Shown here piece after piece: positions 7,994 to 64,000 of a stretch of 64,000 nucleotides of DNA. The position numbers were made by a program, and so were the translations under genes. The notes below the pieces were generated by a model that was not told the origin of the DNA, made no database searches, and was given only the letters and a program-made list of their open reading frames with translations. The DNA lies in the UHGV virus genome UHGV-0101699; one strand, written 5' to 3'. This DNA is from a virus. Position 1 is the first letter of the stretch. The number at the start of each line of letters is the position of its first letter.

Positions 7994-8213
7994 AGAAAGG
8001 CCTTTTTTTGAAAATTAGTCATCAGGGCCGTGCATTTCCCGCTTGTTTGTTTGCGACATCACCCTTGTCTTTGCGTTATGTCCCATCGTTGTCCGGTGCC
8101 AGTTTAGTCATGTTTGCGTCTATGGCTGTCTCGATGCCGCCTGGTCTCGAAGGGGGGACTTCGTCAATTCATGATATGATAGCTTTAATGGTATAGCTAT
8201 GAAGGAATCATAG

Positions 8214-8573: not shown

Positions 8574-8637
8574 AAAATATGAAAATTATCGCAATATAAC
8601 CACGCTACGAATGAGAAAGGCATGGAGCTGCAGGTAA

Positions 8638-9048: not shown

Positions 9049-9057
9049 CGATCAGCC

Positions 9058-9675: not shown

Positions 9676-9769
9676 AAAACCTCTTTACAGCTAAATGGCT
9701 CGTACCTAAGTGTACGCTCTGTTATCAAAAGCGACAAATCAAAACGGCCCCAAACGGAGCCGTATTGTA

Positions 9770-10015
9770 TTACAGAGTGCTTGCGAAAGCAGCAAATTCT
9801 GTGTAACCGCCGATTGGAACATCGTCCAAAAACACCTGGGGAATGGTTTCTACCGGCTTCCCAACCATGCCACTCAGCTTTTGCTTATCGATCCCGGCAG
9901 CGACAATATCGATGTACTGATATTCGCCATATCCATGCCCCTGCAGCTGCTTCGCCAGCTCAACTGCCCGCTTACAGAAGGAGCAATTATCTCGGCCATA
10001 AATCACACACTTCAT
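9770..10015 (-). CDS. nrdH: glutaredoxin/NrdH-like redoxin
   Basis: 81 aa; MKCVIYGRDNCSFCKRAVELAK (CxxC active site in thioredoxin-fold context). Confidence 0.7.
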   Translation of the reverse strand: MKCVIYGRDNCSFCKRAVELAKQLQGHGYGEYQYIDIVAAGIDKQKLSGMVGKPVETIPQVFLDDVPIGGYTEFAAFASTL

Positions 10016-10398
10016 TGTTTTGCCTCGTTAAATCTTTGTTTTAAGAGATATCCTTCAAGTGGCCAGATTTTAGCGACTGCGTTCTGGCGCGCAATCTTAC
10101 GACCGATCTCCGGATCAAAGTTTTCCGGGCTTGCACAAGCTGATTCACCGGTAACGATGAATCCGTTCTCCAACACCAGTACACAAAACGTCAGTAATTT
10201 AAGCGACTCAAGATCAGCGTCGCCAGCAACTGGCACCTCTTTGCCGGCATAGGTCCCACTTGCCAGGGCGCCAGATCTGCCATCAAAGGCCGTAAAATAA
10301 TGTTCGGCGCGGATAACGCTTTGGATACGTTCTGGGGTTACTCGCGCGGCCGTTTTTCCCTTGGCCACGATTTCTTTTTCGATTTCCATGTCAGTCAT
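10012..10398 (-). CDS. hypothetical conserved phage protein (128 aa)
   Basis: ORF with AAGGAAACAAAATG TIR; start overlaps downstream stop. Confidence 0.5.
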   Translation of the reverse strand: MTDMEIEKEIVAKGKTAARVTPERIQSVIRAEHYFTAFDGRSGALASGTYAGKEVPVAGDADLESLKLLTFCVLVLENGFIVTGESACASPENFDPEIGRKIARQNAVAKIWPLEGYLLKQRFNEAKQ

Positions 10399-10407
10399 TT
10401 TGTTTCC

Positions 10408-11184
10408 TTACAGATAAGCTTGAAGCGCCACTTTGCATAGCTCAGAGCGCACGCAATCTTCGGCCGTGAACTCAATGAGCCCTACTTGGCGAGATGGCTG
10501 GAACCGCTGCAGGGCGTCCTCAAGACCAGATTTAACATTACCCGGCAGGTCGCATTGCGTTACATCACCATTCACGATGACTGTTACGTTCTCACCCATC
10601 CGAGTTAGGAACATCTTCATTTGTGACGCCGTCACGTTCTGGGCCTCATCGAGGATGACCACAGCATTTTCGAACGTGCGACCGCGCATATATGCGAAAG
10701 GTGCGATCTCGACTTTGGCCACTTCTGGTTTGAGGCAGTATTCGAGAAATGAAGCGCCCAGGCGCTTCTGGAGCACATCGTAGACGGGACGAAAGAACGG
10801 AGCGAACTTCTCGGCCATATCGCCAGGCAGGAAGCCCAAATCCTCCTCTGCCTGCAGTACGGGGCGCGTAACGATAATTCGCTCTACTTCCTTATCGAGT
10901 AATCGCTGTGCCGCGACTGCCGTCGCCAGGAAGGTTTTACCGCAGCCGGCTTCGCCAGTGGCGAACGTCAGTGCTTTGCTATCAAGGGAGATAAGATAGT
11001 GGGCCTGGGCCTCATTGCGTGCCTCTATGGGGGAAGTGTCACGCTTCGGTTTTGGGGGCAGAGCAGGGGCGGCGGTGGCCAGCTCGTCTACGATAATAGT
11101 GTCGATCTCGTATCCGAGAATACGCGATTTTGACTTAAGCGCCTGGCGAGCTGCACGTCGCGCCTGTTTACGTTTGTTTCCCAT
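10408..11184 (-). CDS. phoH: PhoH-family ATPase
   Basis: Walker A GEAGCGKTFLA, Walker B ILDEAQN; ORF extends to 11280 but terminator hairpin at 11284-11301 and MGNKRKQARR start at 11184 favour shorter form. Confidence 0.8.
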   Translation of the reverse strand: MGNKRKQARRAARQALKSKSRILGYEIDTIIVDELATAAPALPPKPKRDTSPIEARNEAQAHYLISLDSKALTFATGEAGCGKTFLATAVAAQRLLDKEVERIIVTRPVLQAEEDLGFLPGDMAEKFAPFFRPVYDVLQKRLGASFLEYCLKPEVAKVEIAPFAYMRGRTFENAVVILDEAQNVTASQMKMFLTRMGENVTVIVNGDVTQCDLPGNVKSGLEDALQRFQPSRQVGLIEFTAEDCVRSELCKVALQAYL

Positions 11185-11283
11185 ATTGAGTCCTTTCAAG
11201 TGAGTAACCAGACGAACTATACCTAAAAGAGAACGCAAAAGTAAGTAAGTAGTTACATAACAACAAGAGCGCTTATGCAAGAA

Positions 11284-11301
11284 AAGGGGCCGAAGCCCCT
11301 T
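11284..11301. terminator. GC hairpin AAGGGGC-CGAA-GCCCCTT with flanking T-runs on both strands (terminator of tRNA transcript)
   Basis: read directly. Confidence 0.5.
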
Positions 11302-11456
11302 TGGATTTTGCGCTGAAAAAGTGTTGCTAAGATGCTAGAAGCTATGGTTAAAGAACGTCTGCCGTAATGTCTATCACAGCGTTGAGCGGTCTGGCCATGG
11401 TGACAGGCGGAGTCTTTTCGATAAGAAAAACAAAACCAAACCGCTCAACGCTGTGT

Positions 11457-11543
11457 TGGCGGAGGATAATGGAATCGAACCATCATCGCTTTCGCAATGG
11501 GACGGTTTTCAAGACCGCTTGGGCGCCATGCCCTCTATCCTCC
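11457..11543 (-). tRNA. tRNA-Ser (anticodon UGA), type II with long variable arm
   Basis: reverse complement GGAGGAT...GCGGT-CTTGAAA-ACCGT...GATGG-TTCGATT-CCATT-ATCCTCC-G-CCA; acceptor, anticodon and T arms pair; CCA encoded. Confidence 0.65.
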
Positions 11544-11690
11544 GTTCGTTGTGACGCCAGATGCTTATCTTCTGGTTGCTTCAACGAGCTGCAATTCATC
11601 ACAACGGTAAGGGCATTCAGGGAATCAGATCCGTCGCGAACAGCCAAAGAGCGCGCCTTCCTTGCTGTCGTCCAAATACCCTTACCGTTG

Positions 11691-11765
11691 TGGCGATGGT
11701 GGGTGGATTCGAACCACCGACCAGTTGATTAACAGTCAACCGCTCTACCACTGAGCTACACCATC
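11691..11765 (-). tRNA. tRNA-Asn (anticodon GUU)
   Basis: reverse complement GATGGTG-TAGCTCAGTGGTAGAGC-GGTTGACTGTTAATCAAC-TGGTC-GGTGGTTCGAATCCACC-CACCATC-GCCA. Confidence 0.75.
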
Positions 11766-12037
11766 TAAGGTTGACACCGTCAGCCTCTGTCGATTCACGG
11801 ACTTGTGGGGCTGTATCGCCGATTCACCGGTGTCGTTCGCAGCAGTCCTACCGCTTTCTGCCACTTGTGCTTTACGTATTCACCAAACGCTTACAAGCCA
11901 AGATCTTCAAATACTCTCCGAGGGTTGAGGAGGGCTTTCTTTCAGATCTAATTGGATGTATGGAATCATTTAATCGTTGTGGCCACGGGGCAGTGACAAC
12001 AATGGCTATAACCAGAAGGATAATGAATCCGTGACCA

Positions 12038-22537: not shown

Positions 22538-22900
22538 TCAGCCTTTCTTCATCAACTCGCGCTTTATTTCGTCAGTACGCATCGTCACATCAGCAGCGGT
22601 GATCGCCTCGTTCATCTTTACGATGTCCTCTATTTCCTGCGGGGACTTCTCTGCCAGATGGAAAATGGCTGCACGTATCACATCAGAACGGGTGAACTTC
22701 TCGAAGCGAGGGATGAACTTCATCATCTCCAGTAATTCGAAATACTCGTCTTCAAGAGACATCGTGCGGCTTTTGATTTTCTCTTTGCCACGTGTTGGAC
22801 GGCCTTGTGGACGGACAGGCTGGCGCATCGGGGTGCTGCTTTTAGGTGCAGCAGCTTCCGCAGCCGGACGTTTTGCCAGATCACCCATTTTCATGGACAT
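22538..22900 (-). CDS. small partition-associated DNA-binding protein, ParG-like (disordered basic/Pro-rich tail + C-terminal RHH-like region), candidate
   Basis: 120 aa; immediately downstream of ParA with ATGA-type overlap; C-terminus SLEDEYFELLEMMKFIPRFEKFTRSDVIRAAIFHL. Confidence 0.5.
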   Translation of the reverse strand: MSMKMGDLAKRPAAEAAAPKSSTPMRQPVRPQGRPTRGKEKIKSRTMSLEDEYFELLEMMKFIPRFEKFTRSDVIRAAIFHLAEKSPQEIEDIVKMNEAITAADVTMRTDEIKRELMKKG

Positions 22901-23565
22901 TATTCACCCTCCAAGGTCATTACGTATTCTACTAATGCTTCAATCTCGGCCTCAGCCTTTTTGTCGCGCTCGGCTCCAGTCATCTCAAATATGGAACGAC
23001 CCGCCTCTTCGGCATCGTCATAGACGTTGCGGTTGTAAAGATTCACCGGTACCGCCTCAATGCCAAAGGTTTCGACAATTTCTTTTGCAGCGATAATGCG
23101 CGCAGCCTGGGAAGGCAGAGACGGGCACTGGTTCATTACAGCACGGATTTTGATTTGGTCATTCACGCTGCTAACGCTGTCGACGATGGGGTCGATGTCA
23201 CGTAAGGATTTCAGATCGCGGCGTTTCGGGCGAAGCGGGATAAGGATCACGTTGGCCATCAGCATAGCCTGGCGCTGAATTTCGGAGTCGAAACCACCAG
23301 CGTCAACGACGACGTAATCGAAACGGCCGCGAAGCGAAGTGATGTGTTTGATGATGTCATCCTGGACATAGGCGAACGGGATCAGCTCCAGTTCTTCATT
23401 GTGCCGGCGGTCTTCACACCACCCTGTCGTGGTGCGCTGGATGTCGATATCAGTGATCTGGACTTTCTTTTTCTTTTTGATTTTCAGACAGGCTGCAATT
23501 TGCTGAGCAACAGTCGATTTGCCTGGGCCACCCTTGGTGCCGCCCACCACAATGATCTGAGTCAT
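22900..23565 (-). CDS. parA: ParA/ParF-type partition ATPase (type Ib)
   Basis: 221 aa; deviant Walker A GGTKGGPGKST; VVDAGG Walker B; contains KKKKK run encoded by homopolymeric tract 23463-23481. Confidence 0.8.
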   Translation of the reverse strand: MTQIIVVGGTKGGPGKSTVAQQIAACLKIKKKKKVQITDIDIQRTTTGWCEDRRHNEELELIPFAYVQDDIIKHITSLRGRFDYVVVDAGGFDSEIQRQAMLMANVILIPLRPKRRDLKSLRDIDPIVDSVSSVNDQIKIRAVMNQCPSLPSQAARIIAAKEIVETFGIEAVPVNLYNRNVYDDAEEAGRSIFEMTGAERDKKAEAEIEALVEYVMTLEGE

Positions 23566-53942: not shown

Positions 53943-55517
53943 TCACTCGGTTGCTTGAGTTGATGAGTTCCCATTCCCTTGGGATAGATCTTGTCCGCTC
54001 TCTTGGACCGTATCACGATGATAAGTAAGTACTGACTTATTTTCAAGGGTGTTAAGAGCATTTTTTGGCGGAAAATTCAAGAGATCTTTCTCAAATTCTT
54101 TCTGCATCGCGGCCGAAATATTCGGGAAGATTTTCTCAATGAGCATTTCCATCTGATATCGACGCACAGAATCCGGTGCTTCCAGCAGCCCAAGTTTCTC
54201 GGCAACGGCAAATTCATCCGTCAGACCGCGGATATCAAAGCTCTCCGGATAGGCAATCAGCGAATGCTCCTCATCGAGATCGACCCCCATCCACTTCGCC
54301 GCCAAAAACATCATCTGGCGTTCAGCCCGCTCAAGACGCTCGGCTTTAGTAATAAGCAGACTATTAACCCGCTGAAAATCATATAACTTGGCGGCCCCGG
54401 ATGAATTATCGATCCCCTTAGCGTTATCCTGCTTTGTTCGCTCGCCAGCGACCCCAACGGAGTGGTAGATCTCATTAATCACGGTCTGGATAGTGGTGAT
54501 GATCATCTGAGCTTGCTTAGGGTCTGGCGACAAATAAAAAGGCTGGTTGCCACTTTCCGAGTCATAGGTGAAGACGCGTTTTGTCCCCATTTCCATTACC
54601 TTTGCGTGATTCTCATCGCCTGGCAGGAGCGACTGAACGGGAATGGCCAGTTGGCTGAACGTCTGATCCTGAATAATGGCGTCAAGGTTCGACAGATAGT
54701 TGGCTACTGCACGGTCAAGGTAGGCGATATCATCAATAAGCGACGGGCTAAAATACGGCGATTCGCTCTCCCCTATGCAATCAACAGGAAACACAGGTAC
54801 AACGCCAAGTTTGTGTTCGCCTTTATCTTCAAGCACAACTTTTGCGGTCCGACGACCGGCATTCCCGGCGCCTTTCTTAACCTCTTCCCGGAATAGATAC
54901 CACTCGTTACGTGTCCATAGACGATAACGCTGATATTCCTGGCCAGATGAGGTAAAAGGATCTTGATCATCGCGCGCCACTTCGACAATCAGCGCCCAGA
55001 TCAAATTGCCGTCATCGTCCCACGCCATATCCAACATCTGCTGCGGAGAAATCCAGTAGGCATAGGCGCGAACATCCTTCTTCTTCTCGTCAGCGACGGA
55101 TTCTGCGTCACTATCCATCGTGCTATCGACCACCACCCAGACACGGCCATAGATGGAGGACTGGAGGTCAAGCGCGGACATAAAGCCATCGATGGAAACA
55201 TTATGTCGTGTCGCGCGTTTCCAGAACTTCTGAATTGGCTCAGGCGCTTCTTCTACATTTCGATGGATGTCCTCTTTAAAGAGATATTTATTAATCAGGT
55301 TCACCACTTCCCTGGTGTGATTGAAGCGGTAGGCGCGTTCCAGACGCTCCTTGAACTCCTGATCACCTTCTTTGAAGTATCGGAAAATGTTGTCATCGAA
55401 CCAGGCACGCCCGCCAGCGTATGTGCTGGCGAGGAAATCCCAGTGCTCTTTTTTCTTTATGTATTCGGGGTGGCGTCTTGCCACAAGATCCTTAATTTGC
55501 TTATCAGTCAATTCCAT
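53943..55517 (-). CDS. portal protein
   Basis: ORF 53943..55532; second Met MELTDKQ at 55517 has GGAAGGA SD; size and position. Confidence 0.65.
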   Translation of the reverse strand: MELTDKQIKDLVARRHPEYIKKKEHWDFLASTYAGGRAWFDDNIFRYFKEGDQEFKERLERAYRFNHTREVVNLINKYLFKEDIHRNVEEAPEPIQKFWKRATRHNVSIDGFMSALDLQSSIYGRVWVVVDSTMDSDAESVADEKKKDVRAYAYWISPQQMLDMAWDDDGNLIWALIVEVARDDQDPFTSSGQEYQRYRLWTRNEWYLFREEVKKGAGNAGRRTAKVVLEDKGEHKLGVVPVFPVDCIGESESPYFSPSLIDDIAYLDRAVANYLSNLDAIIQDQTFSQLAIPVQSLLPGDENHAKVMEMGTKRVFTYDSESGNQPFYLSPDPKQAQMIITTIQTVINEIYHSVGVAGERTKQDNAKGIDNSSGAAKLYDFQRVNSLLITKAERLERAERQMMFLAAKWMGVDLDEEHSLIAYPESFDIRGLTDEFAVAEKLGLLEAPDSVRRYQMEMLIEKIFPNISAAMQKEFEKDLLNFPPKNALNTLENKSVLTYHRDTVQESGQDLSQGNGNSSTQATE

Positions 55518-55532
55518 TTGTTTTCCTTCCAT

Positions 55533-55554
55533 GATAGGTAAGTACTTACTTATC
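55533..55554. promoter_or_regulatory. TAAGTA-family palindrome GATAGGTAAGTACTTACTTATC (1 mismatch) overlapping terL stop, 5' of portal RBS
   Basis: read directly. Confidence 0.5.
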
Positions 55555-56806
55555 TTGAGCCACCAAGAATAACACGATTTTTTACGGGATACCTACGATG
55601 AACCGGGTAGCCCAAGGCATCCGCGCTGTGCTCAATCCCCCCGCTCTTATCCATATCGCGCGAGCCTGGTTTGTAGATAACTTTCTCCAGTGAATCGATG
55701 AGATGTTTGCACTTAGGGTCGATATACAAACGAGTTTCGCCAGAGGCGCTCATCAACATGCGGTTCACTGAGTTCACACGATCAGCAATCGGTGGGTGCT
55801 TTTTCGGATAATCAACACGCAGAAAGCCCTTCTCCTTGAAGATGTCGATGTCCGATTCCCCACGAGCGTGCTGACGATAGGCGCCGGCCGGGTCTGGGAA
55901 AATTGTGACCTGCGATTTCCACCGCCAGAAGCGACGCTCCAGCTCATCGCACACTTCTGCCGTATTCGACGAAAACAAGACAAGCTCATCCACAGCCCAC
56001 AGCTCCCCATTCGGTTGTGGCTGCAGGATGACCGACGACATTGGATCAATGTTGAAGTCCTGGCCTACCCACACCGGTAATTTAGGATTGAACTGCAGCG
56101 GCTTAACGTGAACGCTACGATCGAACGGGTAATACACGCGCCCTGACATGTTTTCGAAGCTGGCGAGGTACTCCTGAGCGAACGACTTAGGGTCCATATC
56201 GTTCTTGGCTGCCTCGATTTCTGCCGTCGGAACGAATGGTGAATCAGCGGTTACAAACTGCCAGCTTTTCCACTGACCTTTGCGCTGCAGCTCTTTGTTC
56301 TGCCCGATAGTCCATAGTTTATGGAATTCGGAGAACCCTTTCGGTGTACCGATGATCAGCGCGCCGCCGCGGGTGGATGACAATGTCGGACGGAGAACCT
56401 TGTACCAGGTGTCTGGCTTCATATCCTGGAACTCGTCGAGCACAACGAAATGCAGCGCAACACCACGAAGCGTATCCGGTTTATCCGCGCCTTTAAGCGC
56501 GATCTCCGAACCGTTTTTCAACACGATGGTCATCGTGGTGTCGTTCTTCTTCCGAATCCACTTACGCGGCAGAACCTCCTGCAGATCATCCCATAGAATC
56601 TGGCGCGCCATTTGGTAGGTCGGCGCGACGTACCAAACTCGTTGTTTTCTTTCCTTAGCGGCAGCGCGAATGATGGTTGAGATCGACAGCCTCGATTTAC
56701 CCCAACGTCGTCCGGCGCACACCACTTTGAAACGATGTGGCGACTGGAAGACTTGCATCTGCCCGGAATGCAGCTGTACGAGACTTAGAGACGACGGGAT
56801 GGACAT
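55550..56806 (-). CDS. terL: terminase large subunit
   Basis: Walker A VVCAGRRWGKSR, Walker B VVLDEF; C-terminal nuclease-like region. Confidence 0.8.
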   Translation of the reverse strand: MSIPSSLSLVQLHSGQMQVFQSPHRFKVVCAGRRWGKSRLSISTIIRAAAKERKQRVWYVAPTYQMARQILWDDLQEVLPRKWIRKKNDTTMTIVLKNGSEIALKGADKPDTLRGVALHFVVLDEFQDMKPDTWYKVLRPTLSSTRGGALIIGTPKGFSEFHKLWTIGQNKELQRKGQWKSWQFVTADSPFVPTAEIEAAKNDMDPKSFAQEYLASFENMSGRVYYPFDRSVHVKPLQFNPKLPVWVGQDFNIDPMSSVILQPQPNGELWAVDELVLFSSNTAEVCDELERRFWRWKSQVTIFPDPAGAYRQHARGESDIDIFKEKGFLRVDYPKKHPPIADRVNSVNRMLMSASGETRLYIDPKCKHLIDSLEKVIYKPGSRDMDKSGGIEHSADALGYPVHRRYPVKNRVILGGSR

Positions 56807-56808
56807 GG

Positions 56809-57450
56809 TTATGCATCTCCATCATCGTCTTCGCCCGATGCGTCAAAATCGCTCTCAGCTTCGCTCAGCGCTTCTTCTTCGAGTGATTCCAACAGATCGT
56901 CATCAATCACTTCGGGCTCATCATCTTCCTTGCGCAGCTGGGCCACCTGTGATGGGGTTAGCTCGCCAAAGACAAGGTTCGGAATATCCTCTTCACCGCC
57001 TTCTTCTTTCTCCATGCCCAATGCCTTGGAGGAAATTTCGAAGCATTTGGCCAGCGTGCCGCTGGCGCGCTGCAGGCTTTTAAGATCGTCCTCAATCGAG
57101 GCCAGTGGCTTACCTTCGCGCTTTGCTGTAGTGACCTCGACCATCACCATCTGACCAAGGGCATACGCCCAGCCGTCATAGCGTGTCCGGCGGTCTTCTA
57201 TCTTTTCGGCTCGGGCTTTAGCGCGCAGTTCTGCATCGGACTTGAGAGACTCGCGCACCATCTTCCCAACAGAATCAGCGCCTTTCTCTAATCCACGCTT
57301 TTTGAAGTGTCTGGAGAGCGTTTCACGACGGATGCCGTACTCTTCTTCCAGTTTTGAGAGCGTATACTCGCCCGAAGTCCATTTCGCTTCGGCTTCCGCC
57401 CATTCAGCCGGAGTCAGGCGAGTTTTGCTCTCGTCTTTTTCGACAGTCAT
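56809..57450 (-). CDS. terS: terminase small subunit (N-terminal HTH, acidic C-terminus)
   Basis: ORF 56809..57498; MTVEKDESK start at 57450 has AGAGGG SD; HTH YTLSKLEEEYGIRRETLSRHFKKRG. Confidence 0.6.
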   Translation of the reverse strand: MTVEKDESKTRLTPAEWAEAEAKWTSGEYTLSKLEEEYGIRRETLSRHFKKRGLEKGADSVGKMVRESLKSDAELRAKARAEKIEDRRTRYDGWAYALGQMVMVEVTTAKREGKPLASIEDDLKSLQRASGTLAKCFEISSKALGMEKEEGGEEDIPNLVFGELTPSQVAQLRKEDDEPEVIDDDLLESLEEEALSEAESDFDASGEDDDGDA

Positions 57451-57492
57451 AGATCCCTCTAAAACACACACAGAGCGCTTCCTTGCGCTCTT

Positions 57493-57505
57493 AAACAATT
57501 TGTTT
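57493..57505. promoter_or_regulatory. AAACAATTTGTTT palindrome (member of 4-copy TnAAACAAnTTGTTTTCT family)
   Basis: 43 nt upstream of terS start; other copies 5805-5817, 20360-20372, 23601-23613. Confidence 0.6.
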
Positions 57506-57554
57506 TCTAGTTGTATTAATTAGGTCTGGGGAATCTGTTTGAGAGCCTGCTTTC

Positions 57555-57603
57555 GTATATATTTAATAAGTGACTTATTAGTTATATATACAGCCGCAGG
57601 CTG
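57555..57603. terminator. AT-rich imperfect palindrome GTATATATTTAATAAGT-g-ACTTATTAGTTATATATAC followed by CAGCCGCAGGCTG hairpin
   Basis: read directly; downstream of gene 57626..57892. Confidence 0.35.
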
Positions 57604-57625
57604 TTAATCTGACTCCCAGACCAAC

Positions 57626-57892
57626 TTACATCACCAGTAACTTGGCTCTGGCTCGACCTAATGTCGTCAGCCCCAGAGTTCGACGCTGGTAGCCAGAATC
57701 CTCTCGCGGCCGGCAGTCGTGCTTTTCGACCAAACCTTTCTTGATCAGCGCGCGCAGGGAGAATTGCATAGACTGCTTTGTCGTCCGGTAAGGCAGCACT
57801 TCCAGCAGCTCGTCCAGATCGAGCAAATGTCCACGTTCATGGCCTAAGTTGATGGTCTTAATGATGTCTTTCTGTTTATCAGTCAGTGTCAT
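57626..57892 (-). CDS. small winged-helix-like transcriptional regulator, candidate
   Basis: 88 aa; last gene of GNAT/ABC/ParB operon. Confidence 0.45.
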   Translation of the reverse strand: MTLTDKQKDIIKTINLGHERGHLLDLDELLEVLPYRTTKQSMQFSLRALIKKGLVEKHDCRPREDSGYQRRTLGLTTLGRARAKLLVM

Positions 57893-57901
57893 GGCAAATC
57901 C

Positions 57902-58801
57902 TTATGCCGGTAACGCAATATCCAGTGGTGCATTCAGCGGTTGTTTATCAAAAGCCAGCAGTGGCAGTGTGTCAGGCAGCTGGCGACCAAAATCAGGGTT
58001 GCGATAAACCCCATAGAGCGGTGAAGTGAAGCTCAGATTGTGAATATCCTTGAGCAGTTTCACGATGCTGGCCTCATCCACCAGGCTATCCGCGATATCC
58101 TGAATGGTAGTGCCACGGTTGCGGCCTGCTTTTGCCAGAGAACTATTCTTGTGATAGTCCGCCACCAGATCTCGCAGAGCGCGGCGCCGGCGTGAATCAG
58201 TCATCGCAAACAGCTCTTTCACAATCGCTTCGTTGTCGCCGGGATCAGAACGAAAATGGCGCTGAAAGACGCGAAGCGCGCTTTCGTAGCTCTTCGGACG
58301 TTCAGGACGGATGAAGCAAAACCCTGCTTTCATGGCAAACGGGTTATATTTGCTCATCGACGACTGGATCTCGATGATTGGCCGGTCATGCATCCTGCTA
58401 ACCAGATTAATCATGCGATACGATACCCCGACGCCACGATACTGGGTGTCCACTACAGAGCGGCTGATCACAGCGAAGTTGTTGTTTACGTAACGTCCCC
58501 AGTACTGATTTGCCACAGTGGTGTTGGTTGTGGGTTTCAGCTTTGGAAACATGCGATGCCGCGGCGCCAGCAGCAGTTTAGGGAAGGCCATAACTACAAC
58601 GCCTACCAACCGACCATCTAGCTCACAACGGTAGTAGGTAGGGGCGAACGGCTTCCCATCTGTCTTGTAGTGAAGCGACTTAAGCGCGTGCCAGTCTTCT
58701 ACCGTCCCCCTGGTGACGGTCATGCGCTCAAGAAAGTCCAGATGGCGCGGGAACTCCTCCGGGCGATACCGTTTGATGATGATGTCTGTCATGCCGATCA
58801 C
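57902..58801 (-). CDS. GNAT-like acetyltransferase-fold protein with C-terminal extension, candidate
   Basis: 299 aa; motif-A-like AVISRSVVDTQYRGVGVSYRMINLV. Confidence 0.4.
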   Translation of the reverse strand: MIGMTDIIIKRYRPEEFPRHLDFLERMTVTRGTVEDWHALKSLHYKTDGKPFAPTYYRCELDGRLVGVVVMAFPKLLLAPRHRMFPKLKPTTNTTVANQYWGRYVNNNFAVISRSVVDTQYRGVGVSYRMINLVSRMHDRPIIEIQSSMSKYNPFAMKAGFCFIRPERPKSYESALRVFQRHFRSDPGDNEAIVKELFAMTDSRRRRALRDLVADYHKNSSLAKAGRNRGTTIQDIADSLVDEASIVKLLKDIHNLSFTSPLYGVYRNPDFGRQLPDTLPLLAFDKQPLNAPLDIALPA

Positions 58802-59052
58802 CTGCGCTCGATATTGGCATTGATGAAGTCCAGGCGAAGCGATTCCATCGCCCCAACCATGACGTATGGGCGCCCACCGTTATGCCAGCAATCCAGAACA
58901 CTCCCGTCGTTATTGATCATCAGCAGCGCCAGGCTCTGGCTTTTGCCTTCTCTGGCGTACTGGAGTGCATCTTCCAGCAGGCGGATGACTTCAACGTTAT
59001 TGTTGTCAGTCTCTTTCGATGGCTTCAGCTCTACGATCTTCAAATCAGGCAT
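58798..59052 (-). CDS. hypothetical 84-aa protein
   Basis: ORF overlapping neighbours by 4 and 8 nt. Confidence 0.45.
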   Translation of the reverse strand: MPDLKIVELKPSKETDNNNVEVIRLLEDALQYAREGKSQSLALLMINNDGSVLDCWHNGGRPYVMVGAMESLRLDFINANIERR

Positions 59053-59683
59053 ATTCCACCTTCACGCGTTCTTTGTAGTGCTTGGTGATCTGCATATCCG
59101 GGCGCAGCGCGTTCTTCAGGTCTTCGTGGGTCGTCGCCACCATTACCGTCGCACCTACCTTTCGCGCGGCACGCTGGAGGTTCGACGCCACAACCTGGGC
59201 GGTAACACGATCAAGAACTGCGCCAAATTCATCCGCAGCCCATACCTTTGCGCCCGACTCAATAAGCTTGGCGATCTTGAGCCGGTATTTCTGGCCATCC
59301 GACATTTCAGAAGGTTTGCGCACAAAGAGATAGGCATCATTCAAGCCAGCCATCGAAAGCAGCCCTAACGCTTCGCTGGTGGTTTTACCCAGTTGGTCAA
59401 TGACATTGACGTCGTTGTCAAAGGTAAAGTCATCAATGGAGGCGACTGAAAGCCCTTCATCTTTCATCTGGCGTTGTAGCTCACGCAGCACGACAGATTT
59501 TCCGGAGCCTGACTGGCCAGTGATGTAGACCACATCACCCTGCTCGACTTCCAGCTCAAGATTGTCGTAAAGCGTCCAGTCTTTTTCATCCAGACCAAGC
59601 CCAAACGATTCGGCGATCTCAAGCGTGCGAGTGGTCTTGTTGACACGGGTCTGGAACGATACGTTGATGGTATATGTGCTCAT
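59045..59683 (-). CDS. stand-alone minimal ABC-type ATPase (NBD only, 212 aa)
   Basis: Walker A ITGQSGSGKS, signature MSDGQKYRL, Walker B VWAADEFGAVLD, H-loop ATTHE. Confidence 0.7.
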   Translation of the reverse strand: MSTYTINVSFQTRVNKTTRTLEIAESFGLGLDEKDWTLYDNLELEVEQGDVVYITGQSGSGKSVVLRELQRQMKDEGLSVASIDDFTFDNDVNVIDQLGKTTSEALGLLSMAGLNDAYLFVRKPSEMSDGQKYRLKIAKLIESGAKVWAADEFGAVLDRVTAQVVASNLQRAARKVGATVMVATTHEDLKNALRPDMQITKHYKERVKVEYA

Positions 59684-60357
59684 GCTTCGACTCCCCCGGA
59701 GGAAACTTTCTGCGCATAAGCAACGAACGCGTCTACCCCGCTCTCTCCCGTGATTTCTTCCATGTGGGCAAGCAAATCCCCCACGACAATCGCAGAGCCA
59801 GCAGGGAGCGTTTTAAAGCCCAGAACATCGACCACTCGAACCTCTTCGGCGGCGACTTCGCGACTGATTTCGGTGTGCTCTTCTTTCTGGCGCTCGGTTT
59901 CCTCCCCCAGATCCATAACCAGTGCGCCAGTATCCATTTCTTCGGTCATGCTACCGACCAGCACGTTCAGCTCACGCTCGTCAAAGCCGAAGACTTCAAC
60001 GTCACCAAATACCAGAGACTCCAGCTCTTTCTGTAACTTGATGGCATCGTAATCAATGCTGGCCAGCCGGTTATCCTCCAGACGCTTCGCCTTCACTTCT
60101 TCATCGGACAGATCGTCGCGAACGATCACCGGCACACTTTTCAGCCCCGCTAAAAGCGCAGCTTCGCGGCGGCCATGGCCAGTAATGATGACATCGTCTT
60201 TATCGACAGTGATCGGCTGGTCAAAACCACGCTTTTTTATGGCTGCGGCCAGGTCACGGATCTGCTGCTCGTCATGCTTTTTGGCGTTCATTTCATAGGG
60301 AATGAGCTCTGCCGGGTCTCGGTAGACGATTTCGAACGTTTTGGTCATTAAATACAC
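59680..60357 (-). CDS. ParB/Srx-fold (ParB N-terminal-like nuclease domain) protein
   Basis: 225 aa; ...PITVDKDDVIITGHGRREAALLAGLKSVPVIV. Confidence 0.65.
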   Translation of the reverse strand: MYLMTKTFEIVYRDPAELIPYEMNAKKHDEQQIRDLAAAIKKRGFDQPITVDKDDVIITGHGRREAALLAGLKSVPVIVRDDLSDEEVKAKRLEDNRLASIDYDAIKLQKELESLVFGDVEVFGFDERELNVLVGSMTEEMDTGALVMDLGEETERQKEEHTEISREVAAEEVRVVDVLGFKTLPAGSAIVVGDLLAHMEEITGESGVDAFVAYAQKVSSGGVEA

Positions 60358-61058
60358 TCCTTGTAGTTATCGACCAGCCATACCAGAGCTTCACCAGCAT
60401 TCTCCATGTCGTTGCCGGTGTTGATCGCCTGCTCTTTGATGATGGATTTGATGGTTTCGGTAACGCGATCAGAAGCGTCAAACGTCACTTTGAAGCGCAT
60501 GGTCTGGTGTTCCGCACCAACACGCTCAGCTTTTTCGCGAGAGTCCTTCTCAATGGGCTCTTCGTCGCCACGCGACAACGCCTCAAGCATTTCCAGGTCA
60601 ATTGCCGACTCACGAGCTAGTGTGGCCGCCAGTTCGTCGTCGTAAGGGGCAATTTCCGACAGCTGATAATCGAGTTCTGACTGAATTTCCTCGATCAGAC
60701 GCTGTAATGCGACCTGATCGTCTTCGCCGTATCGCTCGTTATCGACCAGAGACATTTGTTTCGCTACCAGATCGCTTATTTTGCCCACCGATATAACAGG
60801 AACCGTGGAAATACCCTGTTCCATAGCGGCTCGCCAGCGATGTTCGCCACCGAGGATCTCAAATTGGCCACCGTCCAGCTCACGCGCGAGAATTGGCTTG
60901 AAAAAACCCAGTTTTTCGATGGAGCCTTTCAGTTTTTCGAAGTTTTGAGCACCAACCGAGTTGGTGTTCCAGGGATTTGGCCGGAGTCTGGCCACTTCTA
61001 CCTGCAGAATGGTAATTTTTACGTCCATACTTTTTGATACAATCCATTGCATAAGCAC
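60348..61058 (-). CDS. ParB/Srx-fold protein (second, tandem)
   Basis: 236 aa; LRPNPWNTN...FEILGGEHRWRAAMEQGISTVPVI (GxxRxxA ParB box). Confidence 0.7.
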   Translation of the reverse strand: MLMQWIVSKSMDVKITILQVEVARLRPNPWNTNSVGAQNFEKLKGSIEKLGFFKPILARELDGGQFEILGGEHRWRAAMEQGISTVPVISVGKISDLVAKQMSLVDNERYGEDDQVALQRLIEEIQSELDYQLSEIAPYDDELAATLARESAIDLEMLEALSRGDEEPIEKDSREKAERVGAEHQTMRFKVTFDASDRVTETIKSIIKEQAINTGNDMENAGEALVWLVDNYKECI

Positions 61059-61111
61059 TTACTTACTATTCTAGCCAATTAACATATAAAAGGCACGAAG
61101 GAAAGATATTT

Positions 61112-62671
61112 ATGACTGTTAGGATTGTTTCGAACGCGGTCAACGCTATGGTCTCCGGCGCTGATGACAACGTGAAGCGACTCGTCCAGGAAATGCTGAG
61201 TTACGAAGTCGAAGCTGGCGACTGGAAAGGCACCAGTACTATGTTCAACTGGAGCAAAAATGCCTTCCCCGCGGGTTTTGCTAAATCGGTAGCAGCAAAT
61301 CTGGTGAAGGCTGGCATTAAATGCGTGCATATTCGCAAAGACAAGGTTCCGGCGCTTGGTAAACCAAACCCGGCAGTTAACCCCTTCCCCTATAATCCGG
61401 ACTATGCGTATCAAGATCAGGCTGTAGAGACACTGGTTCGCGAAGGAATGATGATTGCGCAGATCGCCACAGGCGGGGGAAAGTCGAACGTAGCTTGCAA
61501 AGCCGCGGCGCGTATTGGACGCATGACGCTGTTTTTAACCACCCGCTCTGTTCTTATGTTTCAAATGGCAGATAACTTCCAGAAGTCGATCGACTATCGA
61601 GCTGAGAATGGAGAGCCGTGGCTTAAAGGTCAGAAGGTTGGCATCATTGGTTCTGGTGAGTTTCAGGTGTCTCGCCATATCAATGTCGCAACAGTGCAAA
61701 CCCTGGCGAGTTTTCTTGAAGAGCCTCCACGCGATATGCCGGCGGAGAAAAAGGCTTATCATCTTAAGCGCCGGGAGCTGGTTAAGCGATTCCTCTCAAG
61801 CGTCTCACTGCTAATCCTCGAAGAAGCCCACGAATCCTCCGGTTCAAACTTTTATGACATCGCCAGGCTTTGCATTAACGCAGACTATCGCCTGGCGCTG
61901 ACGGCAACCCCGTTTATGAAGGCTTCAACTGAGGCCAATATGCGTCTGATGGCGGTTGCAGGACGCATCGAGATAAAGGTCACTGAAAAATATCTGATCG
62001 AGCGAGGTATTTTGGCCAAACCTTACTTCGTATACCATAAAATCGCGTACACTCCGGATGAGGCTCGTATACGAGCGGAGCTCGCTTCCAAGCATCTGAA
62101 CTTCAGAGTTGGTATGAGTACGCCGTATCAGAAAGCTTATCAGCTCGGTATCGTTTACAATATTGGACGTAACGAGGCCGTCGTTCGCGACGCGCTGATG
62201 TACCGTGATCATGGACTGAACTGTATGACCCTGGTGAGGATCAAACGCCACGGTCAGATACTGATGGAAATGATGAAAGAGAGCGGCTTACGGGTAGATT
62301 TTATTTACGGTGAATCCAACCAGAGTACCAGACAGGCTAAGCTTAACAGCCTGGCTGCAGGGAAAATTGATGTGCTGATCGGCTCTACGATACTGGATGT
62401 CGGTGTCGATGTGCCAAGTGTTGGCGCCGTAATTCTTGCCGGAGGAGGCAAGGCCGAAGTCGAAATGCGTCAACGTGTTGGTCGCGGCCTTCGTGCCAAG
62501 AAGAATCAGGCAAATGTGTGTTTTATTTCGGATTTTATCGATATAAGCAACAAACACCTGATGTCACACTCATACGAACGAAAACACATTATTGACACCA
62601 CTCCCGGGTTTGCGGAAGGCGTGTTGCCTGTCGGGAGCAGTTTTGACTTTGGTGTATTACAAAGAGATTAA
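61112..62671 (+). CDS. superfamily-2 (DEAH-like) DNA helicase
   Basis: motif I QIATGGGKS, motif II LILEEAHES, motif VI QRVGRGLR. Confidence 0.8.
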   Translation: MTVRIVSNAVNAMVSGADDNVKRLVQEMLSYEVEAGDWKGTSTMFNWSKNAFPAGFAKSVAANLVKAGIKCVHIRKDKVPALGKPNPAVNPFPYNPDYAYQDQAVETLVREGMMIAQIATGGGKSNVACKAAARIGRMTLFLTTRSVLMFQMADNFQKSIDYRAENGEPWLKGQKVGIIGSGEFQVSRHINVATVQTLASFLEEPPRDMPAEKKAYHLKRRELVKRFLSSVSLLILEEAHESSGSNFYDIARLCINADYRLALTATPFMKASTEANMRLMAVAGRIEIKVTEKYLIERGILAKPYFVYHKIAYTPDEARIRAELASKHLNFRVGMSTPYQKAYQLGIVYNIGRNEAVVRDALMYRDHGLNCMTLVRIKRHGQILMEMMKESGLRVDFIYGESNQSTRQAKLNSLAAGKIDVLIGSTILDVGVDVPSVGAVILAGGGKAEVEMRQRVGRGLRAKKNQANVCFISDFIDISNKHLMSHSYERKHIIDTTPGFAEGVLPVGSSFDFGVLQRD

Positions 62672-62673
62672 TT

Positions 62674-62952
62674 ATGACCGAAAATCGCTCAATTTCATGT
62701 CAGGTGAAGCTCACCGAAAAAGCCAACGAAAAGCTTGGTTCGTTCAAAACGCGCCTGAAAGAGCGCAACATCAAAATGTCGAAGTCAGACATCATTAACC
62801 TTGTTCTGACCAAGATGAGCACAGCAGAGTTTGAGAAGATCGCGACCTCGATGGCAGCGGCTGAAAAGGCCAGGGAAAAAGTGATACAGATCTACGAGAA
62901 CTCCGGGATGACCAAGGAAGACCTGGAAGACATCCTAAAACGGCTGCCGTAG
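62674..62952 (+). CDS. hypothetical 92-aa protein
   Basis: ORF starting 2 nt after helicase stop. Confidence 0.45.
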   Translation: MTENRSISCQVKLTEKANEKLGSFKTRLKERNIKMSKSDIINLVLTKMSTAEFEKIATSMAAAEKAREKVIQIYENSGMTKEDLEDILKRLP

Positions 62953-62977
62953 ACTTCTTCTTTTTCCCCGTCATGCA

Positions 62978-63553
62978 ATGTTCATCATGTGCTCGTCAAT
63001 AACAAAGGAGCACATGATGAATTACTTAGCAGAATTACCATTTGTTGACATCTTCGATGCCAAAGCCAACAAGGCTTTTTTCTGGCGCGTCGACAATCCA
63101 CTCGATTATAAGTGCGGCGTGAACGGGGCGAAGACGTTCGTAGAGTTTATCGAGAAGTATCCATTTATGAACAACAGCAATGTTCTTTATCGGGTCGCGT
63201 GCGATATGAGCGACTCAGGGCTTATTAAATCGGAATCAGCAAGAGGGTTCTTCAATACGCTGGATACATTGCTTTCACCGAAAAGTGAAATATCAGCCAG
63301 TGGAGCAACTAAAATCAGAGGCAGAGCACGTCGCACCATCAATGAGGTAGCATGTGATATGGGGATCACAAGCATGAAACTTCTAAACTTTCTTGCTCTT
63401 ATTGGGTGGATAGACAATGCAACTGTACAGCCAACCAATGATTCGCTTACTGAAGGCGTGTTACGAAAAAACAGCAAAATGCCGTTTGGTTTCACAATAA
63501 CCAGAAAGGGTGAACGCTTGATTGCGAGCAAATACCAAGCATTGAGTAAATAA
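62978..63553 (+). CDS. hypothetical 191-aa protein
   Basis: ORF. Confidence 0.45.
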   Translation: MFIMCSSITKEHMMNYLAELPFVDIFDAKANKAFFWRVDNPLDYKCGVNGAKTFVEFIEKYPFMNNSNVLYRVACDMSDSGLIKSESARGFFNTLDTLLSPKSEISASGATKIRGRARRTINEVACDMGITSMKLLNFLALIGWIDNATVQPTNDSLTEGVLRKNSKMPFGFTITRKGERLIASKYQALSK

Positions 63554-63684
63554 TCAACGACATGCCGGAGCTTACTTGCTCCAGCATGTGATCTACATCA
63601 CATTTCAATTATCTCGCACCTCCGGCTGAAAAAAGATCTTGATTAGCTTAGATATATGAGTAGCCTCCATTTCATAGAATTTAA

Positions 63685-64000
63685 ATGGAGGATCTGGGAG
63701 TGGCTCTTTCAAATATACAACTTCAAACCATCATTAATAATTCTGTTGACAACCCACATTATTTACTGCTGAATAATGACATAAGAATACAACGGGCAAA
63801 AGAAACAAATAAAAAAGAACATGCTAGAGGGTTCTATTTTGGAGATGAGCACATAAACTCATTAAAAAGTCCAAATATCGATCCATTTCATATATACATA
63901 ATTTCACCAGAGAATCAATCAAGAAGAGATGATTACTCGCTGGTCATATTCCCTTTCGACATTAAAAAATTAATTCATATTATTGATAGAATAGACGGCA
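63685..64000 (+). CDS. AT-rich partial ORF (MEDLGVALSNIQ...), runs off window end
   Basis: open frame from ATG 63685; very low GC. Confidence 0.35.
   Translation, partial: MEDLGVALSNIQLQTIINNSVDNPHYLLLNNDIRIQRAKETNKKEHARGFYFGDEHINSLKSPNIDPFHIYIISPENQSRRDDYSLVIFPFDIKKLIHIIDRIDG

Follow-up and report, generated by a model that had tools for sequence, protein, structure and literature searches.

An operon at 57626-61058 of an SSU5-like Klebsiella phage-plasmid, between an SF2 helicase gene and terS/terL, may encode an ATP-dependent acyltransferase of several subunits, with phage DNA as its most likely substrate, a tentative reading to which we give slightly less than an even chance. Judged by homology, its ABC protein and its 299-aa GNAT protein correspond to the two parts of an enzyme that most relatives make as one polypeptide, and the locus appears to be a split member of the predicted ABC-GNAT kind of DNA-base acylation system, equipped with two ParB proteins. 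In SSU5-type phage-plasmids the operon belongs to the core gene set. A first-pass annotation of the window (the whole 64,000-nucleotide stretch that was analysed) had considered either virion-packaged anti-restriction factors or a DNA-modification module, and the comparative evidence favours the second.

Results

The six minus-strand open reading frames and the plus-strand helicase frame reported in the first-pass annotation were all found, at the same coordinates. The features of the region are as follows.

60348..61058, minus strand: ParB1, ParB/Srx N-terminal domain with an acidic C-terminal half, without HTH
59680..60357, minus strand: ParB2, ParB/Srx nucleotide-binding domain, helical linker and C-terminal helical module
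59045..59683, minus strand: ABC-type nucleotide-binding domain protein, 212 aa, putative ATPase half of the split ABC-GNAT
58798..59052, minus strand: 84-aa protein (p84), function unassigned, phrog_796
57902..58801, minus strand: 299-aa GNAT protein, putative transferase half of the split ABC-GNAT
57626..57892, minus strand: 88-aa basic protein, probable winged-helix DNA-binding protein, last gene of the operon, phrog_900
61112..62671, plus strand: divergent SF2 helicase (ResIII + Helicase_C), with Pfam, PHROG, NCBIfam and PADLOC matches
56809-57450, minus strand: terS-like gene, downstream of the operon
55550-56806, minus strand: terL, downstream of terS (terS and terL assigned from phrog_867 and Terminase_6N)
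61052..61061, strand not applicable: palindrome TAAGCACTTA, overlapping the ParB1 start
57472..57622, minus strand: structured intergenic region between operon and terS, with an approximately 100-nt imperfect palindrome and a terminator-like hairpin

With the start codons first assigned, the junctions overlap by 10, 4, 8 and 4 nt and end with a 9-nt gap, as had been described. The annotation of the identical plasmid CP052409 provides alternative starts, under which ParB1/ParB2 overlap by 1 nt (TAATG), ParB2/ABC by 4 nt (ATGA) and ABC/p84 by 8 nt, and p84/GNAT and GNAT/wHTH are separated by gaps of 5 and 9 nt. The genes are thus tightly packed under both sets. ParB1 starts at GTG 61058, or at ATG 61052 as on CP052409; the annotated ParB2 start is ATG 60348, and the most likely terS start is 57450 instead of 57498.

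The TAAGTA-family site noted at 61051-61069 exists, although its exact form is the palindrome TAAGCACTTA at 61052-61061. TAAGNNCTTA occurs seven times in the window against 0.51 expected, a count reached in 0 of 100 shuffles, and the extended consensus of these sites is about ATAGGTAAGTACTTACCTAT. Sites of the TAAGCACTTA family stand in front of the portal, head and tail operons as well, and relatives from Yersinia, Acinetobacter (6 sites in 19 kb) and Magnetospirillum have related palindromes ahead of ParB1. A shared promoter region had been proposed between operon and helicase; the 53 nt between the divergent genes gave no sigma-70-like promoter. The hairpin taken to end the operon, at 57591-57603, is present (CAGCC-TGC-GGCTG) but has no T tract and was not called by the terminator scan, which places a better terminator-like hairpin at 57472-57491. 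It forms one element of the approximately 100-nt imperfect palindrome (57523-57622), whose region folds as RNA at -60 kcal/mol (z = -6.85), and the GenBank records of SSU5 and Cyrano end within this palindrome, at window positions 57564 and 57563.

The 212-aa protein matches ABC_tran (E 5.7e-13), and its Walker A (GQSGSGKS), signature (SDGQ), Walker B (DE) and H-switch are kept in 29 orthologues, in agreement with its initial description as an ABC domain with all motifs. It is closer to transporter and ABC-F types than to the DNA-binding SMC, UvrA or MutS classes. The GNAT-like call for the 299-aa protein (pI 9.8) was likewise upheld: the fold was confirmed, with an acyltransferase domain at about residues 27-165 and an acyl-CoA binding loop, followed by a conserved helical/beta C-terminal domain. 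The loop is among 35 columns that are invariant across proteobacterial classes and, together with the complete ABC motifs, this predicts a catalytically intact enzyme. The protein has no match in Pfam or NCBIfam, including none to Pfam Mom at E 0.1. Its best viral structural match is Mom, itself a DNA-modifying GNAT, but these matches are generic: acetyltransferases for small molecules, N termini and ribosomal proteins score level with Mom.

A profile of the 299-aa family collects 972 relatives, many of them proteins of 440-560 aa whose GNAT part begins at residue 200-230, behind an ABC_tran domain. The 212-aa ABC protein is homologous to the N-terminal half of these fused proteins, with which it has family motifs such as AFGLG.DE and LSDGQKYR in common, and the fused-family consensus has motifs in common with both window proteins. 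With the fused protein P0302 as query, tblastn matched both window genes in SSU5-type phages, and a gene of Tenacibaculum phage pT24 matches the fused-family profile at E 3.3e-56. Existing names agree: the 212-aa protein is 'ABC-type ATPase with predicted acetyltransferase domain' at JGI, and sources already attach COG2401 to both proteins. Since most relatives carry the two as one fused gene, the window genes would encode halves of one enzyme, and the ABC domain, initially seen as standing alone without an effector, has its probable partner in the 299-aa GNAT protein. At least 24 contigs carry fusions of a family-B DNA polymerase to ABC-GNAT, within a replication module, and one fused ABC-GNAT gene adjoins DNA Pol III alpha.

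Both ParB-fold assignments held. ParB_N is matched by ParB1 (E 1.2e-14) and ParB2 (E 3.8e-9), and the GG.HR and GHGR boxes of the two proteins, like the DN.RYG.DD motif of ParB1, are kept in 28 orthologues. ParB1 matches phrog_723 (E 3.5e-82), and its nearest PDB sequences are Spo0J, ParB and Noc. The domain search found no HTH_ParB in either protein; their C-terminal halves are acidic (pI about 4.1 for both, 4.2 for that of ParB1). ParB2 resembles the ParB domain fused to phage DNA methyltransferases. In P0334, P0365, P0311, P0338 and P0344 a ParB part is joined to ABC and GNAT in a triple fusion, recognised by the family HMM at E values down to 1.7e-10 and by Pfam ParB_N at 4.4e-4, and a ParB gene stands directly upstream of the fused ABC-GNAT gene in 12 of 24 unrelated viral loci. 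The arrangement recurs in Gordonia phages Sisko and Jace and in Leptospira phage LE4, which its authors describe as lytic (PMC6078989). The fusions and these loci suggest that ParB works with ABC-GNAT.

That the genes form one co-conserved operon was supported by a comparison of 33 clade loci from alpha-, beta- and gamma-proteobacterial elements of about 36-46% identity. Among them are Pseudomonas phage nickie and Rhizobium phage RHEph10, whose database records are for phage genomes and not plasmids. The order helicase / ParB ParB ABC … GNAT (wHTH) terS terL portal is identical in 32 of them. Locus L004 carries the complete module with no terminase beside it. Elsewhere, terL lies directly upstream of the fused gene in 13 of 26 group I loci and within four genes of it in 18; group III usually runs ParB, ABC-GNAT, one gene, terL (within four genes in 14 of 24), and in locus L211 a triple fusion comes before a 158-aa gene, with terL and portal next. 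A ParB gene followed by ABC-GNAT also adjoins terL in unrelated Gordonia, Leptospira and metagenomic phages. In Komp_PAO1_1 and Porphyromonas phages ABC-GNAT follows the tail genes, away from the terminase. Neighbours of fused homologues include formyltransferases (Sisko, Komp_PAO1_1, a Porphyromonas phage), PanD and a CoA-transferase (Jace), adenylosuccinate-synthetase/PurZ-like, radical SAM/SPASM, QueC, amidoligase and ASCH proteins and, in one case, PTH2.

The 84-aa gene is an exception to this co-conservation. Counted as part of the operon at first, it is a lineage-specific insert in a variable slot and not core: it was detected in only 4 of 33 scanned loci, all close relatives of the window, and is absent from E. 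coli phage Cyrano and all diverged clade members. In other members gp49_66, RyR or DUF2829-type small genes occupy the ABC/GNAT slot. Its product has no match in Pfam, NCBIfam or PADLOC. The 88-aa protein (pI 9.8; phrog_900, E 1.8e-46), found in 21 of 33 clade loci, is probably a winged-helix DNA-binding protein, as originally suggested, with a LexA_DNA_bind match (E 7.6e-4) under Pfam's cut-off; same-position small genes in RHEph10 and behind a triple fusion also give weak wHTH matches. The identity and divergent orientation of the SF2 helicase stand (ResIII, DEAD and Helicase_C matches), but as a neighbour of the module it is constant only in the SSU5, nickie and RHEph10 clade. There it occurs in 32 of 33 loci, the exception (L120) being a 5-kb contig that starts inside the module, and it is absent from the fully read Gordonia and Leptospira loci and from L211.

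Discussion

The combination of genes had not been recognised as a described system. The coupling of a GNAT with an ABC ATPase was, however, already predicted to acylate a DNA nucleobase (Iyer, Zhang, Burroughs and Aravind, NAR 2013, as relayed in PMC7824862), and the window has the same two catalytic domains, coupled, with intact ABC motifs and a GNAT carrying an acyl-CoA loop. Base acylation by such systems is a prediction in that account as it is here. It is homologous in sequence to COG2401-type fused members such as the pT24 gene, from which the window enzyme differs in being split into two genes around a variable slot, in the addition of two ParB paralogues and a wHTH gene, and in forming a fixed core upstream of terS/terL in a clade of about 110-kb phages and phage-plasmids. 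ParB-dependent thymine dioxygenases (5mYOX clade E; PMC13229309) and ParB-methyltransferase fusions likewise pair a post-replicative DNA-modifying enzyme with a ParB made of a nucleotide-binding and a C-terminal domain, without a DNA-binding domain, and ParB2 matches the ParB domain of the methyltransferase fusions. Such clusters often lie near terminase genes, as here, whereas the catalytic enzyme here would be an ABC-GNAT acyltransferase, with two ParB paralogues and not one. Mom of phage Mu, a GNAT-fold DNA adenine N6-methylcarbamoylase, is similar at fold level only and, unlike the window module, works alone, without ATPase or ParB partners; membership of its family was rejected, given the lack of any Pfam or NCBIfam match for the 299-aa protein.

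In the proposed mechanism the ABC domains would dimerise on ATP, with the ATP cycle driving substrate engagement or opening, and the GNAT domain would move an acyl group from acyl-CoA onto an amino group. Because the operon has no donor-synthesis genes, the donor would probably be host acetyl-CoA; the acceptor would most probably be the exocyclic amine of a DNA base. The ParB/Srx proteins may load or activate the enzyme on double-stranded DNA, a role modelled on ParB-methyltransferase fusions and on the phage ParB without a DNA-binding domain that activates a DNA-modifying enzyme, the thymine dioxygenase, on double-stranded DNA (PMC13229309). The wHTH protein may be a DNA-binding accessory or regulator. 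From the palindrome common to the head and tail operons and the position just before terS/terL we infer that the module acts late, on replicated DNA awaiting packaging, a timing that depends solely on that palindrome. The polymerase fusions, the Pol III alpha neighbour, the basic GNAT protein, the methyltransferase-type ParB2 and the Mom match all point to DNA, and the formyltransferase, PanD, CoA-transferase and other enzyme neighbours suggest acyl or small-group chemistry. The generic GNAT matches, an ABC domain that does not resemble SMC, UvrA or MutS, and a ParB/Srx fold that also covers small-molecule kinases (SerK, SbnI) and sulfiredoxin weigh the other way and keep DNA as substrate just under evenly balanced. 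For SSU5-type phages, our literature search brought up no account of a non-canonical base.

Linkage to terL is very strong across three gene arrangements and could equally fit a role in packaging, in which ParB/ABC-GNAT would work with the terminase and not in genome-wide base modification. The complex might, for instance, prepare or mark concatemer DNA at pac/cos, or acylate terS, terL or portal. The operon also ends at the palindrome that holds the SSU5 and Cyrano record ends. We consider such an accessory unlikely, though the foremost of the alternatives. The polymerase fusions and Pol III neighbour place the enzyme at replication, Komp_PAO1_1, the Porphyromonas phages and L004 have it apart from the terminase, and donor-type neighbours suit a chemical modification pathway; DNA-modification clusters in general are, moreover, often found with terminases (19% of contigs, preprint of PMC13229309). 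Somewhat less probable again is a role in anti-defence or host takeover, with proteins or small molecules as targets. In that case the GNAT substrate would be a signalling nucleotide or a host protein, such as one of defence or of the nucleoid; the acidic ParB tails could be DNA mimics, and virion delivery might be involved. Phage GNATs do acetylate host proteins, such as Rac on RNA polymerase alpha (cited in PMC7824862), ParB and GNAT domains are combined in polyvalent phage proteins (PMC5512222), and the deposited linear genome has the operon at one of its ends. A host-protein target is, however, hard to square with the polymerase fusions. Anti-defence genes are as a rule variable accessory genes, and this module is a vertically inherited core set with its invariant GNAT columns. 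PADLOC returned no match to a defined system, only generic domain-level ones (the MTase_II ParB part, mad3/8 and PtuA P-loops, and PbeA-like for the helicase).

TmcA combines an ATPase with a GNAT and forms N4-acetylcytidine in tRNA. By analogy, the operon could specify an ATP-dependent acetyltransferase of the TmcA/NAT10 kind whose substrate would be tRNA or aminoacyl-tRNA and whose ABC domain would function as in ABC-F factors. The likeness extends to a nucleic-acid-facing C-terminal domain and to the logic by which ATP hydrolysis presents a base to the acetyltransferase, and the ABC domain has ABC-F-like matches (NF000355, E 1.1e-11; Lsa(A)). Formyltransferase neighbours recall enzymes acting on aminoacyl-tRNA amines, and PTH2 and ASCH are also among the neighbours. 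We nevertheless regard an RNA target as improbable. The ATPase is ABC-type and not a helicase-like P-loop, homology to TmcA/NAT10 is confined to the GNAT core, and ParB and the polymerase fusions indicate DNA as the probable substrate; Rfam found no RNA element in the region and the tRNA genes of the window are unlinked to the module. Identity with TmcA/NAT10 itself was rejected, the NAT10_TcmA_helicase domain being absent.

Database names such as 'ParB-like partition protein' and 'ABC transporter' would make the operon an ordinary partition locus or transporter component, which is very improbable. No operon protein matched a membrane or substrate-binding family, and the partner domain of the ABC in relatives is GNAT. 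The module also occurs in phage-deposited elements (nickie, Gordonia phages) and in LE4. The first-pass view that this is neither ordinary ParAB partition nor a methyltransferase system was sound: the centromere-binding HTH of ParABS is missing, the adjacent ATPase is ABC and not ParA/MinD type, and the ParA-like gene of the element lies about 36 kb from the operon, at 22900-23565, where with a small partner it spans 22538-23565.

A predicted ABC-GNAT enzyme encoded by two genes

The operon lies between a divergent helicase gene and the packaging genes:

61112-62671, plus strand: SF2 helicase
60348-61058, minus strand: ParB1
59680-60357, minus strand: ParB2
59045-59683, minus strand: ABC ATPase domain
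58798-59052, minus strand: 84-aa protein (phrog_796)
57902-58801, minus strand: 299-aa GNAT-like protein
57626-57892, minus strand: 88-aa wHTH-like protein
56809-57450, minus strand: terS-like protein, most likely starting at 57450
55550-56806, minus strand: terL

All six minus-strand reading frames and the divergent helicase frame exist as the first-pass annotation described them. With the starts chosen there, successive genes overlap by 10, 4, 8 and 4 nt before a 9-nt gap, but the starts annotated on an identical plasmid (CP052409) differ and give overlaps of 1, 4 and 8 nt followed by gaps of 5 and 9 nt. This packing is consistent with translational coupling, which we infer from it. Pfam matches bear out both ParB-fold assignments (ParB_N, 1.2e-14 and 3.8e-9), the ABC domain (ABC_tran, 5.7e-13) and the helicase (ResIII, DEAD and Helicase_C). 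The winged helix proposed for the small 88-aa protein is of LexA type and sub-threshold (7.6e-4), and the 84-aa and 299-aa proteins had no domain match in the same search. Every operon protein falls in an existing PHROG family, and the genes are therefore known as sequences, mostly under uninformative names.

The 299-aa protein returned nothing from Pfam, NCBIfam or a PDB sequence-profile search and was identified solely by structure prediction and by its fusion partners. A first IMG/VR scan with its family and an ABC homologue search gave close relatives only. Alignment of 36 relatives contains 35 invariant columns, among them the R-G-x-G loop, and a profile search of 1.84 billion representative proteins recovered 972 relatives. 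Many of these are 440-560 aa long, with the GNAT-like part beginning at residue ~200-230, ABC_tran in front of it and weak Acetyltransf matches on the second half. In an alignment of 24 such fused proteins the first half shares AFGLG.DE, SG.GKS, LSDGQKYR, DEF..LDR and TTH with the window ABC protein, and the second half shares DY..L..FHY, R.VV.P.YRG.G.G and YNPF...AG with the window GNAT protein. Several sources already name both window proteins 'ABC-type ATPase with predicted acetyltransferase domain'. On the fused relatives, the shared motifs and these labels, the two proteins are a single enzyme split into two genes, and the ABC domain, which had been considered partnerless, has its other half in the 299-aa protein. 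An ABC transporter was rejected, as there is no membrane subunit and the ABC domain is fused to GNAT in relatives. A GNAT toxin-antitoxin pair with the wHTH protein as antitoxin was likewise dropped, the GNAT protein being 299 aa long, tied to an ABC domain and encoded by a core gene.

The 84-aa gene, previously counted as part of the operon, sits in the split, is missing from E. coli phage Cyrano and every diverged relative, and is an insert in a variable slot rather than a core gene. Enterobacterial elements have the 84-aa gene in this slot, and distant relatives have other small genes there (gp49_66, RyR or DUF2829-type). The slot spans 58798-59052 in the window, 6961-7999 and 5393-5895 in the homologous loci L003 and L006, respectively, and holds nothing in Cyrano.

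A conserved core of SSU5-type phage-plasmids

Positions 57500-62700 match Klebsiella pneumoniae plasmid pC17KP0008-2 (CP052409) at 100% identity, Salmonella phage SSU5 at 84% and Escherichia phages Cyrano and PhiR41_1 at 80%. The same region is carried by 766 PLSDB plasmids, nearly all non-mobilisable, from Klebsiella, Escherichia, Enterobacter, Yersinia, Salmonella and others. These matches place the window in a phage-plasmid of the SSU5 type, a group that includes Yersinia pestis pMT1-like elements and plasmids of Klebsiella, E. coli and Salmonella in their hundreds. Downstream of the operon, the minus strand carries tail, head and packaging genes. Elsewhere the window encodes tRNA-Ser(tga) and tRNA-Asn(gtt) (11457-11765, minus strand). 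One CP052409 gene (record-locus 954-2186) has moved or changed relative to its expected place in the window (about 954-2186), and the IS3 transposase gene of that plasmid (12346-13466) was not found in the window.

Conservation was assessed in 33 loci of the clade, comprising 29 from one-genome-per-species bacterial assemblies, mostly on contigs of 100-118 kb, and four phage or metagenome loci. The order helicase (opposite strand), ParB1, ParB2, ABC, variable slot, GNAT, optional wHTH, terS, terL, portal is identical in 32 of the 33, including distant loci with 36-46% GNAT identity; in the exception, L004, the module is present with no adjoining terminase. The first-pass annotation was right in seeing an unusual co-conserved module beside the packaging genes. 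The module is a vertically inherited core, which alone does not prove a functional link among its genes. Two clade members, Pseudomonas phage nickie and Rhizobium phage RHEph10, have been submitted to the databases as phage genomes and not as plasmids; a wheat-phyllosphere phage paper proved to concern unrelated nicked phages. The whole block from helicase to portal is also present on the Halomonas sulfidaeris chromosome (L122), where helicase, GNAT, terS, terL and portal are each broken into 2-3 ORFs, and this locus looks like a decaying integrated relative.

ParB proteins without a DNA-binding domain

Both ParB proteins have a ParB/Srx N-terminal domain whose motifs (GG.HR and DN.RYG.DD in ParB1, GHGR in ParB2) are kept in 28 orthologues, and very acidic C-terminal halves (pI about 4.1-4.2). 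HTH_ParB matched neither protein. The ParB2 model (pLDDT 80) matches PadC, KorB, sulfiredoxin, pNOB8 ParB-N, SbnI and a serine kinase, with roughly 85-106 residues aligned in the top matches. After this part the model continues as a helical linker and a C-terminal helical module predicted with confidence, and nothing in it matched an HTH DNA-binding domain. Further matches of ParB2 are to the ParB domain found in ParB-methyltransferase families of phages (phrog_498, E 3e-32; PADLOC MTase_II, E 2.5e-18). A nucleotide-binding and a C-terminal domain with no DNA-binding domain make up ParB2, as has been reported for phage ParBs that serve as activators of thymine dioxygenases on double-stranded DNA (PMC13229309). 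Papers on Druantia and SNIPE name ParB as a DNA label only.

An ordinary partition system was rejected for this module, given that it lacks an HTH domain and an adjacent ParA, occurs also in phage-deposited elements and is accompanied by a ParA-like cassette elsewhere in the window:

22538-23565, minus strand: ParA/MinD-type ATPase of 221 aa (AAA_31, MipZ and ParA matches) with a 118-aa partner downstream

On these matches the cassette is likely to be the true partition cassette of the phage-plasmid.

Fusions and neighbours outside the clade

ParB-ABC-GNAT triple fusions were found in five cluster representatives (family HMM E down to 1.7e-10; Pfam ParB_N 4.4e-4), one of which, at L211, is followed directly by a 158-aa gene and then by terL and portal. 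Gordonia phages Sisko and AnClar have the order ParB-like, ABC-GNAT, formyltransferase, terminase; Sisko gp3 (L123, 1814-2464), annotated as a 'tRNA-methyltransferase', is a formyltransferase-domain protein (PF00551, E 4.5e-10). In Gordonia phage Jace, ParB and ABC-GNAT are followed by an aspartate decarboxylase (2e-33) and a CoA-transferase (2e-8), and Leptospira phage LE4 encodes a ParB-like ORF12, an ABC ORF13 (GNAT label in BFVD) and terL as ORF17. Neighbours were counted at 50 IMG/VR loci carrying fused genes. Of the 26 genes encoding ~480-510 aa, 13 have terL directly upstream and 18 have it within four genes; of the 24 encoding ~360-410 aa, 12 have ParB directly upstream and 14 have terL within four genes. 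Contigs end within or right after the ~500-aa fused gene in 10 of 26 cases (L129-L157), perhaps because the genome ends there or because the sequence that follows is hypervariable or repeated.

At least 24 contigs encode a 1260-aa protein made up of a family-B DNA polymerase, an ABC and a GNAT domain. Its gene, at 8001-11783 on the metagenomic phage contigs L008/L009, sits in a replication module together with genes for a 5'-3' exonuclease, Prim-Pol, RecA and RNA ligase. A further fused gene immediately precedes the one for DNA Pol III alpha. An adenylosuccinate-synthetase (PurZ-like) gene overlaps the ABC-GNAT stop, and in Komp_PAO1_1 and Porphyromonas phages the fused gene comes after the tail genes and is followed by an overlapping formyltransferase gene. 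Further neighbours are radical SAM/SPASM, QueC, PAPS reductase, amidoligase, 2OG oxygenase and ASCH genes. In some phages the enzyme thus travels with possible makers or tailors of acyl or amino donors; beta-alanine from PanD, activated by CoA-transferase, would be one example and formylation of an amine another. Repeated recruitment of ParB domains, occasional polymerase fusion and such companions form a pattern typical of phage DNA hypermodification islands.

Regulatory palindromes and the structured gap before terS

The 'TAAGTA' site noted in the divergent region corresponds to a palindrome, TAAGCACTTA, at 61052-61061. The 10-bp palindrome family TAAGNNCTTA, mostly TAAGTACTTA and with an extended consensus of about ATAGGTAAGTACTTACCTAT, has 7 sites in the window against 0.5 expected (6344, 20590, 26644, 42498, 52093, 55539 and 61052). 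Copies stand ahead of ParB1 and of the operons for portal, head and tail proteins; the one at 55539 falls within the 17 nt separating terL from portal, and the one at 61052 overlaps the ParB1 start. Yersinia, Magnetospirillum and Acinetobacter relatives also have related palindromes ahead of ParB1, with 6 sites in 19 kb of the Acinetobacter locus L121. TAAGNNCTTA is probably the site of a conserved phage regulator, for which the 88-aa wHTH protein is a candidate. A sigma-70 scan of the divergent intergenic region gave no promoter and Rfam had no match across 55000-64000.

At its other end the operon meets a structured gap:

57451-57625, 175 nt: structured gap between the wHTH gene and terS (RNA fold -60 kcal/mol, z = -6.85)

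The hairpin reported at 57591-57603 exists, but as a single element within a ~100-nt imperfect palindrome (57523-57622) that has nested arms at 57529-57562/57584-57617 and 57556-57571/57573-57588; a terminator-like hairpin lies at 57472-57491. The SSU5 and Cyrano GenBank records begin and end at about 57563/57564, within this palindrome, and the gap is a candidate cos/pac site or late operator.

Proposed function

Both the ABC and the GNAT catalytic motifs are intact, and the enzyme is repeatedly joined to ParB domains and sometimes to a replicative polymerase. It is predicted to be a catalytically intact ATPase-acyltransferase, and the best explanation for the locus would be ATP-driven, ParB-assisted acylation of phage DNA, for which we infer substrate, donor and timing. 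Late action is probable given the palindrome family shared by ParB1 with the portal, head and tail operons. As the window operon has no donor-synthesis genes, the donor would be an acyl-CoA of the host, in the simplest case acetyl-CoA. Genes for post-replicative DNA modification are often found at this position, ahead of terS/terL, and terminases are among the most frequent domains co-occurring with such genes (preprint of PMC13229309). Between the DNA modification and anti-restriction roles suggested at first pass, DNA modification is the better. Tentatively, SSU5-type phage-plasmids may carry a new acyl-CoA-derived DNA-base modification, put on late by a ParB-loaded, ATP-driven ABC-GNAT enzyme in step with packaging, with relatives adding other acyl groups, such as beta-alanyl or formylated ones, through accessory enzymes; we regard this fuller scheme as possible rather than probable.

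A packaging accessory is the strongest rival, because three different gene arrangements repeat the link to terL and the operon stops at the large palindrome that coincides with the SSU5 and Cyrano record ends. Fusion to polymerase, loci that lie apart from terminase genes and neighbours of donor type speak against such a role. A host-directed protein acetyltransferase or a virion-delivered anti-defence factor is possible, yet either would fit poorly with a strictly conserved core module and with the polymerase fusions; among known defence and anti-defence systems PADLOC gave generic domain matches only. A tRNA or translation target is also possible and draws on TmcA-like logic, ABC-F-like matches and the formyltransferase and PTH2 neighbours.

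Acylation of phage DNA was anticipated by Iyer et al. in 2013, who predicted that a GNAT with an ABC ATPase makes an acyl modification of a DNA base. The prediction is restated, citing that NAR paper and with Tenacibaculum phage pT24 as the example, in PMC7824862. As pT24 is among our tblastn matches and its gene matches the fused-family profile (E 3.3e-56), this kind of system was already predicted in the literature and the combination is not wholly undescribed as first supposed. Our comparative analysis arrives independently at the 2013 reading, and the locus is best classed as a split, two-ParB member of this predicted ABC-GNAT kind. Literature searches found no experimental study of the ABC-GNAT family and no paper on COG2401 or an ABC-type ATPase fused to acetyltransferase. 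The module being a fixed core part of SSU5-type phage-plasmids and of cultivable phages such as SSU5, the open 2013 prediction comes within reach of E. coli and Salmonella genetics and of nucleoside mass spectrometry. If true, it would add a chemically new class to the known phage DNA modifications and provide another case, the second, of ParB as a partner of DNA-modifying enzymes, and could explain how these clinically common elements cope with restriction as they pass between hosts. The ParB- and polymerase-ABC-GNAT fusions and the donor-enzyme neighbours supply concrete hypotheses on partners and donors.
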